Below are positions 36,474 to 38,778 of a stretch of DNA of 42,273 nucleotides, piece by piece. Position numbers and translations under genes: made by a program. The stretch is from the IMG/VR virus record IMGVR_UViG_2908959467_000004. One strand, 5' to 3'. The notes below the pieces were generated by a model. The model was not told the origin of the DNA. It did not search any database and saw only the letters and a list, made by a program, of their open reading frames with translations. This DNA comes from a virus. Taxonomy: Duplodnaviria > Heunggongvirae > Uroviricota > Caudoviricetes. Numbering within the stretch: the first letter of the stretch is position 1; every line of letters starts with the position of its first letter.

Positions 36474-36695
36474 ATGTCATTTAAATATCGGGACAGTCCG
36501 CTTTATTACCGGGCTGCGAGGGAGGCCTTGCGCCTTGAGCAGTCCGGCGAATATGACCGGGCAGCGAAGGTCTGGGCCAAGGCTAACCGCCAGTCACGTA
36601 ACGAACTGAATCAGGACTGGAGCGAACGCCGGTCTGATTTTTGTCTGATGCAGAACATGCGCGAAAAGCGTAAGGCGGTGAGCGATGACTTGTGA
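36474..36695 (+). CDS. small regulator-like protein (possibly ANR-family-like)
   Basis: 73 aa from ATG at 36474 (SD AGGAG); basic helical protein with C-terminal FC motif. Confidence 0.35.
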   Translation: MSFKYRDSPLYYRAAREALRLEQSGEYDRAAKVWAKANRQSRNELNQDWSERRSDFCLMQNMREKRKAVSDDL

Positions 36696-37167
36696 GCAGA
36701 CCATTCTTGACATGTGCTGCGGCTCTCGTATGTTTTGGTTCGACAAGGAGGACAAGCGCGCCGTGTTCAGTGATATCCGCGCCGAGCAGCATGAGCTTTG
36801 CGACGGTCGCCAGTTGGTTATAAGTCCGGACCTTATAGCTGATTTCCGCGCCCTTCCCTTTGCCGATAACACTTTCCCTGTCGTCGTTTTCGATCCGCCG
36901 CACCTCGAGCGCGTCGGCGATAACGCGTGGATGAGGAAAAAGTACGGGCGGCTCAACAAAGAAACATGGCGCGATGATCTTCGCGACGGCTTCGCCGAAG
37001 CATTCAGGGTATTGCGGACCCACGGTGTACTCATATTCAAATGGAACGAAACGCAGATCCCGGTAAGCAATATCTTGGCGCTGACCGACGAGAAGCCGGC
37101 CATATGGCAACGAACCGTAAAAGCCGACAAAACCCACTGGGTTATTTTCGTCAAAGGTGTGGAATGA
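36685..37167 (+). CDS. small SAM-dependent methyltransferase-like protein
   Basis: 160 aa; N-terminal ILDMCCGS (motif I-like) and VVFDPPH (DPPY-like motif IV). Confidence 0.5.
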   Translation: MTCEQTILDMCCGSRMFWFDKEDKRAVFSDIRAEQHELCDGRQLVISPDLIADFRALPFADNTFPVVVFDPPHLERVGDNAWMRKKYGRLNKETWRDDLRDGFAEAFRVLRTHGVLIFKWNETQIPVSNILALTDEKPAIWQRTVKADKTHWVIFVKGVE

Positions 37168-37460
37168 TGGCCTACGAACGTGAAAGCCTTATCGAAAAGC
37201 ACCTCGTCGCCGAAGTGAAAAAGGCTGGCGGGGTCGCCTTTAAGTTCGTGTCACCCGGTCGCCGCTCGGTACCGGATCGCATTGTCCTGCTACCCGGCGG
37301 TCGCATCGTCTTTGTCGAATGCAAAGCGCCAGGCAAACCACCACGGCCTGACCAGTTACGCGAGCACGAACGGCTGCGCGCGTTGGGCTTTACCGTGGTG
37401 GTATTAGATAGCAAAAATCTGGAGGGGATATTGTGCGGGGAGCCTATTACAACGAAATAG
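37164..37460 (+). CDS. VRR-NUC domain nuclease
   Basis: 98 aa from ATGATG at 37164 overlapping the upstream stop; PD-(D/E)XK-like core DRIVLL...VFVECK. Confidence 0.7.
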   Translation: MMAYERESLIEKHLVAEVKKAGGVAFKFVSPGRRSVPDRIVLLPGGRIVFVECKAPGKPPRPDQLREHERLRALGFTVVVLDSKNLEGILCGEPITTK

Positions 37461-38461
37461 ACCCTAACGCAGCACAATGGCTGCGTAACCTTATTGCTGC
37501 AGGTCATATCGCCCCGGGTGAAGTTGATGAAAGGAGTATCGAAGATGTCGCACCAGACGACTTGCGCGGATTCACACAGTGCCATTTCTTCGCCGGGATC
37601 GGCGTCTGGTCTTATGCTCTGCGTCTGGCCGGATGGCCGGATAACAAACCGGTCTGGACAGGAAGTTGCCCGTGCCAGCCTTTCAGCTCGGCTGGTAAAG
37701 GCGCTGGGTTTGATGACGAGCGGCACCTATGGCCAGCACTATTCCACCTCATCAGCGAGCGACGCCCTAAGCTGGTATTTGGCGAACAGGTTGCGGGAGT
37801 CAATGCCTGGTTCGATCTTGTACAAACTGACGTGGAAGCAGTGGACTACGCCTTTGGGCTTGTCCCGTTTCCGGCTGCGGGCGTCGGTGCCCCGCATATC
37901 CGAGATAGAGCGTATTGGGTGGCCGACGCCAGCGGCGAGCGATCACAGCGGTGGCGAAAGCGCCTCAATAGCATTGAGGAAGATGTCTGGAGATCGTCGA
38001 CCGTCCGGCAACACGCTACACAGCTCCCTGCGGAATTTTGCTCACCTAGCGGGGTGGTACACCCCAACCTGCAACACAAACCCACAGCCGGAGACAAAAC
38101 GCGGTCTAGAAACCTTAGCGGGACTATCCAGATTAGCGGGATGGCCGACAGTGACGACGATCGACAACAACCAAGTTCGTGCCGAGGGCGCAGCGGCCAA
38201 TCATACCGAACGGGGAACGACCCTCGGCGGCGCTGCGAGAATCTGCGGCCCAATACGATTAACGGCTGCTGGGATGGTGCTGACTGGCTCCTCTGCCGGG
38301 ATGGTCGCTGGCGGCCAGTTGAATCCGGCACATGCCCGTTGGCTAATGGGATTACCTCCAGAGTGGGACGACTGCGCGCCTACGGCAACGCGATAGTCGC
38401 ACCAGCTGCCGCAACATTCATCCGCTCGTTTATGGAATGCGCAGGATACGACCTTATTTAA
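37433..38461 (+). CDS. DNA (cytosine-5) methyltransferase, Dcm-like
   Basis: 342 aa; motif I FFAGIGV, motif [15 protein letters not shown], motif VIII-like [10 protein letters not shown], motif X-like YGNAIVAP; a second long ORF (37494..38396, +1 frame) with MTase-like motifs overlaps it. Confidence 0.7.
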
Positions 38462-38778
38462 TGCCACTCACATCTGGCATGATACCGTCCAGAAGGTAAT
38501 TGCTTATATACAACGGAGCCGCCCATGGCATAAGTATAAGCATGAAGTTTTGTCCAGAAGTCCCCATAAACTAGTATTGGGGCTAAAAATTTTGGATCGC
38601 TAACCATAGATGTAGCAGGAAGCTCGAAACCTTTAGAAAGAATGTTTACCAGTGAAGGGTAATTTTCAAAATCAGTGCTATTCCCGCCCACCTCTAAAGC
38701 ATCCAGTTCAAAGTCGAGCACTCCACCATTTTTGTAATACTCCGGAACAGTTAACCCTGATGTTAACAAAGTAGCCAT
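38458..38778 (-). CDS. hypothetical protein, oppositely oriented moron
   Basis: 106 aa; strong SD AGGAGG 8 nt upstream; lower GC; divergent from the helicase gene. Confidence 0.5.
   Translation of the reverse strand: MATLLTSGLTVPEYYKNGGVLDFELDALEVGGNSTDFENYPSLVNILSKGFELPATSMVSDPKFLAPILVYGDFWTKLHAYTYAMGGSVVYKQLPSGRYHARCEWH

Follow-up and report, generated by a model that had tools for sequence, protein, structure and literature searches.

How does one stretch of phage DNA come to hold two long, protein-like reading frames at the same place? This question is raised by the cytosine-5 (C5) methyltransferase locus of IMG/VR virus record IMGVR_UViG_2908959467_000004, a Caudoviricetes sequence of 42,273 nucleotides (nt) that is referred to here, at its full length, as the window. 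The preliminary description had placed two overlapping frames at 37433-38461 and 37494-38396, and both are present. Open reading frame (ORF) A, an alpha-like DNA cytosine methyltransferase (RefSeq WP_001213772.1), occupies 37433..38461, starts with GTG and encodes 342 amino acids; coordinates are on the + strand unless noted. ORF B, which we call beta-like, lies wholly inside A on the same strand and in the +1 frame, and runs from an ATG to a TAG stop at 37545..38396, encoding 283 amino acids. The overlap therefore comprises all 852 nt of B, which spans 83% of A. B as listed is slightly larger (37494..38396, 300 amino acids from the first TTG), and its frame is open from stop to stop from 37461. 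Both ORFs are conserved, selection acts on each in its own frame, and B has its own start signal. The locus is probably a conserved same-strand nested gene pair, most likely encoding a heterodimeric C5 methylase like M.EcoHK31I; we infer that B is translated, joins A in a heterodimer and recognizes the target.

We first consider how widely the two open frames are shared. A GTDB scan with one genome per species gave 474 loci, 80 of which were examined. These and three distant relatives that DNA similarity brought up (Erwinia phage Eho59, Burkholderia phage PhiBt-E264.1 and a Klebsiella entry of the phage collection, with both frames open in each) make up a set of 83 related loci that spans the alpha-, beta-, gamma- and delta-proteobacteria and shows ~50-57% protein identity to the window's A. 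The 80 GTDB loci align to A over residues ~4-335 in a single frame. All 83 resemble the window in having a +1 frame that stays open along 82-100% of A, for 195-394 codons (241-394 without one locus in which A is cut short), while the +2 frame contains 5-27 stops. Using permutations that shuffled synonymous codons within each gene, with protein and codon usage fixed, we compared 57 non-redundant loci with chance. With the A protein fixed, frame B has 6 stops in A codons 31-165, against ~114 expected; with the B protein fixed, frame A has none in its middle, against ~181 expected. The +2 frame, serving as a control, shows no avoidance (352 stops observed, 320 expected). Since the loci share ancestry, the permutation sums are not independent probabilities, but the double openness first noted in the window lies far beyond the chance level that they set.

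To locate the constraint, mean pairwise diversity was measured by codon position in either frame (A1, A2, A3 and B1, B2, B3), and the identity expected for B was obtained by resampling A's synonymous codons. Over A codons 1-75, A3 diversity is 0.45-0.63, far above A1 and A2, and B identity does not exceed that of the +2 frame, indicating that only A is constrained there; B identity over codons 1-76 shows a small excess (0.38-0.44 observed, 0.34-0.36 expected). Over codons 76-165, A3 diversity drops to 0.27-0.37 and B is conserved as much as A or more, with a B identity over codons 77-165 of 0.62 where A alone would give 0.31-0.34. In the middle of the gene, B3 (the same nucleotide as A1) is the most variable position, whether the loci are aligned by A or by B, and A residues barely align. 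The C-terminal region begins with 20 codons under tight constraint in both frames. The next ten, which encode 'HxRWLMGLP' in B, are B-dominant: the A3 (= B2) position has a diversity of 0.09, and at the amino-acid level B is less diverse (0.11) than A (0.33). Beyond them A is dominant. The dual-constrained DNA at 38256..38394 is 82-87% identical between the E. coli prophage and the Burkholderia and Erwinia phages, an identity that we attribute to the dual constraint. The frame under dominant constraint thus switches at ~37922 and ~38352, near the positions 37915 and 38380 at which the preliminary description had expected alignments to change frame.

At shorter range, an O103 allele that is 97% identical to the window differs from it by 15 substitutions, too few for a formal test. 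Judged by eye, about twice as many of the changes in the middle and C-terminal parts affect A as affect B (~12 versus ~6). The only internal indel in the overlap between the two alleles is 18 nt long and preserves both frames.

B also appears to have an independent site of initiation. A Shine-Dalgarno (SD) sequence, AGGAG, at 37532..37536 lies 8 nt upstream of the ATG at 37545 and is formed from the Arg-Ser codons AGG AGT of A. Among the related loci, the last upstream stop in frame B never falls past A codon index 37, counted from the aligned A start, and in most loci an ATG stands at index 36, the position of 37545 in the window. This ATG arises from an Asp GAT followed by a codon beginning with G, and GAT is used here in 52 of 57 loci, compared with 41% of Asp codons overall. 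The (A/C)GGAG sequence likewise combines Ser AGY with Arg AGG, a codon chosen at this position in 27 of 57 loci and for ~10% of Arg residues overall. These codon choices point to a B start of the form (A/C)GGAG-N8-ATG, made of A's non-preferred synonymous codons. Gene callers pick the same ATG (P0001, 283 amino acids, identical start), and most of the best matches to the B profile, among the matches listed, begin at the same profile position as the B start.

What, then, does each chain encode? The catalytic core of A (37433..37924) comprises motifs I-VIII, and in codons 1-75 its third positions are the most variable, the A-only coding pattern. Motif I (FFAGIG, 37586-37603), motif IV (CPCQPF, 37667-37684), a motif VIII-like segment with HIRDR (a QxRxR variant) at 37895-37924 and motif X (YGNAIV, inside 38360-38398) are in frame A, as had been said, and a motif VI-like FGEQV (an ENV variant) is found in addition at 37778-37792, so that A holds the C5 methyltransferase motifs I, IV, VI, VIII and X. 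The Pfam family DNA_methylase (PF00145) matches only residues 76-172 of A, with 48.1 bits (cut-off 22), and this match covers only profile positions 66-168 of 324; phrog_363 matches A over its full length at 3e-90. A also matches M.HhaI, at 1.5e-6 with phmmer and, through its predicted core, at 8.8e-6 with Foldseek. AlphaFold2, run with a 77-sequence alignment, predicts a moderately confident HhaI-like core and a confident C-terminal helix, and predicts disorder for residues 184-289 (predicted local distance difference test, pLDDT, 28-45).

Between these parts lies a read-through linker (residues 165-276, 37925..38260) that is stop-free, rich in Arg, Ser, Gly and Asp, and predicted to be disordered. 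Its protein is not conserved: it lacks a coding periodicity of its own and aligns poorly among homologs. The suspicion that the middle of A is not a conserved protein segment is thus borne out, the periodicity following B and pLDDT being ~30. A folded target-recognition domain (TRD) with motif IX between motifs VIII and X of the same chain was not found in A. The C-terminal segment (38261..38458) contains PLAx, motif X and a terminal helix predicted at residues 323-337 with pLDDT >80, and frame A keeps a conserved 'RPVE..PLAxG' segment directly ahead of motif X. In Sphingomonas sp. RB3P16, the frame A linker contains the runs HHHHHHH and DDDDDD, which fits a segment whose residues are dictated by the other frame.

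B begins with a poorly conserved tail of ~40 residues. An N-terminal domain (residues 44-124, ASLSAR..., 37674..37916) follows, dual-coded with A motifs IV-VIII. The modular region at 37917..38273 contains three GW(P/Y)T(P/V) modules, at 37917, 38052 and 38139, and a motif IX-like segment occupies 38316..38366, the most strongly constrained stretch of B. Frame B had been credited beforehand with recognition-type GWPTP repeats and a C-terminal motif of the IX/X junction; the three modules and the motif IX-like segment answer to these. The number of WPTP modules differs among relatives, and a search for tandem repeats in the DNA gave none that would underlie them. In the predicted structure of B, residues 70-115, which belong to the dual-coded region, form a helix and a beta-hairpin and are the only confident part (pLDDT 75-81).

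We propose a mechanism in which ribosomes starting at GTG 37433 would make protein A, consisting of the motif I-VIII core, a disordered linker that would need only to remain stop-free, and the motif X segment. Ribosomes starting independently at AGGAG-N8-ATG 37545 would read the +1 frame and make protein B, consisting of its ~40-residue tail, the helix and beta-hairpin domain encoded over A motifs IV-VIII, the three WPTP modules and the motif IX-like segment. A and B would then assemble into one heterodimeric cytosine-5 methyltransferase, to which B might give, in trans, the small target-recognition domain that is absent from A, with the N-terminal domain of B as the putative docking element. 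Such an enzyme could act as a phage orphan methylase that shields phage DNA from host restriction.

A system of this design has been described. In the passages that PMC2836561 and PMC3404938 devote to it, M.EcoHK31I of E. coli HK31 (Lee, Kam & Shaw 1995) is a C5 methyltransferase for which two polypeptides are required, alpha with motifs I-VIII, X and a predicted TRD, and beta with motif IX; the beta gene is contained in full within the alpha gene, in a different frame, internal methionine codons serve as the starts of beta, and the further beta is truncated from its N-terminus, the weaker its association with alpha becomes. The window shares with it a second ORF nested in the methylase ORF on the same strand and in another frame, a large chain with motifs I-VIII as well as X, and a nested chain with its own internal start, which for B is a matter of sequence evidence. 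Because the architecture matches, we read A as the alpha-like catalytic chain and B as the beta-like chain; the likeness is to the architecture in its published description. M.EcoHK31I is described as part of a restriction-modification system and recognizes YGGCCR, whereas the prophage gene is an orphan. The nested methylase pair is a kind already known but rarely recognized, to which this prophage pair is newly added. The beta chain of M.EcoHK31I is reportedly 176 amino acids long, compared with 283 for B.

Other comparisons set the locus apart more clearly. C5 methyltransferases offer well-documented cases of fragment complementation, as related in PMC3404938, which also cites M.AquI of Agmenellum quadruplicatum (Karreman & de Waard 1990) as a naturally split enzyme whose two subunits must associate. 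According to that account, the M.AquI split is sequential, not nested, and places motif X on beta; in the present pair it belongs to A. The window does not show a first ORF that ends after motif VIII followed by a second with IX and X, since A is full-length and contains X. Monomeric C5 methyltransferases such as M.HhaI and M.HaeIII (PF00145) share A's catalytic motifs and HhaI-like fold, but they have the TRD and motif IX in-frame between motifs VIII and X, whereas the conserved information for this interval lies here in the +1 frame. As in viral overprinted genes, both frames are under purifying selection and synonymous variation of the older frame is suppressed, but the overlap of 852 nt is unusually long.

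The connection of B to the methylase draws on relatives in which the same parts are arranged differently. In mycobacteriophage Badger (KX550442; locus L090, 876-1971), the motif I-VIII ORF ends right after motif VIII, and a +1 ORF contains LLPTP modules, RLNAAFSEWMMGWEEGWVTD and motif X 'IGNGVV' in one frame, so that there are two sequential overlapping ORFs, a layout closer to M.AquI than that of the window. The B profile matches this second Badger ORF at 1.5e-4 (Z set at 1e5), through a region that continues in-frame into motif X. The alignment of its modules and motif IX-like part there supports placing B with the methylase. In Arthrobacter phage MidnightRain (L092, 741-2195), motifs IX and X are in frame A and the modules are in a nested +1 ORF. 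In mycobacteriophage IrishSherpFalk (L094, 820-1995), most modules are in frame A together with motifs IX and X, and the +1 ORF of 177 codons holds only the N-terminal hairpin domain and the first module. A further actinophage relative is Babsiella (L096, 325-2172). That the building blocks are split differently between frames across lineages fits parts of one split-tolerant enzyme, and the actinophage layouts suggest repeated frame re-partitioning in evolution.

Relatives with the window's own layout extend well beyond the enterobacterial phages. A tblastn search with B reached 235 phage records, including N15 (inside gp58), epsilon15-like, K1ind/Kagunavirus and Rhodobacter phages, and a nested +1 ORF is present in phages N15, K1ind2, RcIroh, Paenibacillus Tadhana and Lacticaseibacillus R23.9. 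The B profile matches the nested +1 ORFs of R23.9 (7e-16) and Tadhana (7e-11), showing that the layout reaches Firmicutes phages. Both nested ORFs are annotated as DNA methyltransferase in E. coli phage K1ind2 (ORF29 and ORF28; locus L084, 1287-2216 and 1375-2172) and in Tadhana (gp54 and gp55; NC_048691, locus L091, 906-1976 and 1108-1812), and we found no discussion of this double annotation in the searchable literature. Elsewhere, naming in the databases is inconsistent: A is given alone, or B is given as 'hypothetical' or 'putative metabolic enzyme', and seldom are both named. The record of Burkholderia phage PhiBt-E264.1, for example, annotates the B frame as its coding sequence under 'putative metabolic enzyme'.

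The B family itself is very large. A search with B returned >4,666 matches, none with a Pfam domain except a few chimeras, and its profile found 17,939 matches at E<=1e-3 and 7,736 at E<=1e-30 among 1.84 billion cluster representatives, each match being a 50%-identity cluster. In PHROGs, B matches phrog_1008 at 1e-26 and phrog_31772 at 2e-29; both families, like phrog_363 for A, are labelled 'DNA methyltransferase'. The preliminary description had held that homologs aligning continuously to A, with no significant hits to B, would overturn its account of two frames. The outcome is mixed: homologs do align continuously to A residues 4-335, yet B has thousands of significant matches.

Several observations weigh against the heterodimer. 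Translation of B and its interaction with A are predictions from the DNA. The predicted structure of B has a mean pLDDT of 55 and a predicted template modelling score (pTM) of 0.25; Foldseek gave no meaningful PDB match for B, and Pfam and NCBIfam scans of it recognized no family, motif IX or TRD. The link between B and motif IX consists of the modest hidden Markov model match to Badger together with position, and an alignment of the motif IX-like segment to HhaI residues 248-286 is without significance. In M.EcoHK31I the TRD is assigned, in the published passages, to alpha, whereas we place recognition in B because the variable region of A is unconstrained and disordered. Finally, 'RPVE..PLAxG' of A might itself serve as motif IX, leaving B another role. 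B would then be a genuine nested protein with its own function, such as a methylase regulator, an anti-restriction factor or a DNA-binding protein, and A alone would be a complete enzyme with little or no TRD. Such an arrangement is consistent with A being a complete ORF with motifs I, IV, VI, VIII and X, with its pre-X segment standing at roughly the usual spacing of motif IX from motif X, and with the lack of a Pfam or NCBIfam match or a confident fold for B. We nevertheless consider it unlikely, since the modules and motif IX-like segment of B align to the part of Badger ORF2 that runs into motif X, the modules of MidnightRain and IrishSherpFalk sit in different frames relative to IX and X, which fits parts of one enzyme better, and in the only nested case studied biochemically the nested chain is an obligatory methylase subunit.

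The preliminary description had left a nested gene standing beside sequencing errors, compensating indels and programmed frameshifting, and only the nested gene held up. Programmed recoding would join the frames into a single A-B-A polypeptide by shifting +1 near 37915 and -1 near 38350-38390. The dominant constraint does run A-B-A, chimeras such as P0018 show that A-to-B fusions yield long ORFs, and in Badger a single +1 junction would link motifs I-VIII to TRD, IX and X. But homopolymers in the gene never reach 5 nt, and of 57 loci just 1 has a canonical -1 slippery heptamer in the second junction region. Instead of a conserved slippery site with the zero frame closing soon after, we find both frames open hundreds of nt beyond the junctions: in every locus frame A is open through the middle and frame B is open ~370 nt upstream of the first junction, neither of which a frameshift product needs. 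One chain could not hold both the N-terminal domain of B and A motifs IV-VIII, because these share DNA, and B has a conserved SD and ATG of its own. An A-B-A composite also scores lower than pure A against Pfam (40.8 versus 48.1 bits), and the chimera junctions fall at four different sites, each cluster being on a single contig. Recoding is accordingly improbable in our view. That B is a non-coding shadow ORF, held open by the codon and composition bias of a GC-rich gene, is more improbable still. In a Burkholderia locus with 65% GC the chance of zero B stops is indeed high (P0 = 0.48), but at 52-58% GC the per-locus probability is 0.03-0.08, the +2 frame is full of stops, and B has coding periodicity in the middle, about twice the expected identity and a conserved start signal. 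Artefact or decay, in which sequencing errors or a pseudogene with two compensating indels would leave B as the ghost of the original frame, would explain why the middle of A looks like out-of-frame translation. We give it practically no chance. The exact sequence recurs in independent complete E. coli genomes, at least 10 in number, which excludes sequencing error, and identity is at least 95% in 34; the same double-open layout occurs in 83 of 83 loci at 50-57% identity and also in Firmicutes phages, and a decayed frame would have gained stops, of which 181 were expected and 0 were seen.

Four chimeric proteins (P0014, P0015, P0017 and P0018) were considered as natural A-B fusions and rejected; we take them to be indel mutants or assembly errors and not products of a conserved junction. 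Three of the four junctions can be recreated by the loss of one G, within CCTGGTTC, GTGGAC and AGAGCG. With neither frame closed, every indel leaves a long ORF, which gene-calling programs accept. Chimeras in public assemblies run both A-to-B and B-to-A, and some are named DNA (cytosine-5-)-methyltransferase.

Returning to the nested two-subunit enzyme, we tentatively suggest, as a generalization about which we are of two minds, that C5 methylases of phages and prophages, across a very large clade, carry a nested +1 gene as a rule, with the recognition module as a separate subunit, and that lineages differ in the frame of their WPTP/LLPTP modules and of motifs IX and X. In the searchable literature we found nothing specific that describes a nested gene in phage methylases, only M.EcoHK31I emerging, and no account of how widespread such a gene is. 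If the suggestion is correct, an enzyme whose two frames are both permanently open could be divided anew between its chains by a single indel without being destroyed, a built-in route to diversify specificity. If B is the recognition subunit, then specificity prediction, cloning and expression would fail or mislead unless both frames are kept, which bears on methylomes, restriction evasion and phage engineering. As an unusually long (~850 nt) and ancient same-strand overlap under clear dual purifying selection, in which conserved protein information alternates between frames, the locus also offers a well-populated natural test case for two proteins sharing one sequence.

As for its hosts, at least 10 complete E. 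coli chromosomes, for example BH100 and F11, contain the 1029-nt locus at 100% identity, and it is present in 35 of 5,426 genomes, with at least 95% identity in 34. At this prophage RefSeq annotates A only, so that a conserved protein of 283 amino acids is absent from it. RefSeq places A among genes for a DNA polymerase, an ANR-family regulator, a class I S-adenosylmethionine (SAM) methyltransferase, a VRR-NUC nuclease and an SNF2 protein; as a group, these neighbours resemble a prophage replication module. No endonuclease adjoining A is among the annotated neighbours, making A a prophage orphan methylase.

On Ralstonia solanacearum megaplasmids (H167-H170, ~1.88 Mb), tblastn matched residues 150-282 of B only, with no annotated feature beneath; either a remnant left by truncation or an independent copy of B's C-terminal half may lie there. 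Within the window, the first 28 nt of A (37433-37460) overlap the end of the upstream VRR-NUC gene (RefSeq 37167..37460). The last 4 nt of A (38458-38461) overlap the end of a convergent hypothetical gene on the minus strand (38458..38778), which encodes 106 amino acids with a weak match to DUF5848 (E 0.22). The class I SAM-dependent methyltransferase, at 36685-37167, is a small protein of 160 amino acids with weak Methyltransf_11/25 matches; it lies two genes upstream of the C5 methylase, giving the prophage module two methyltransferases.

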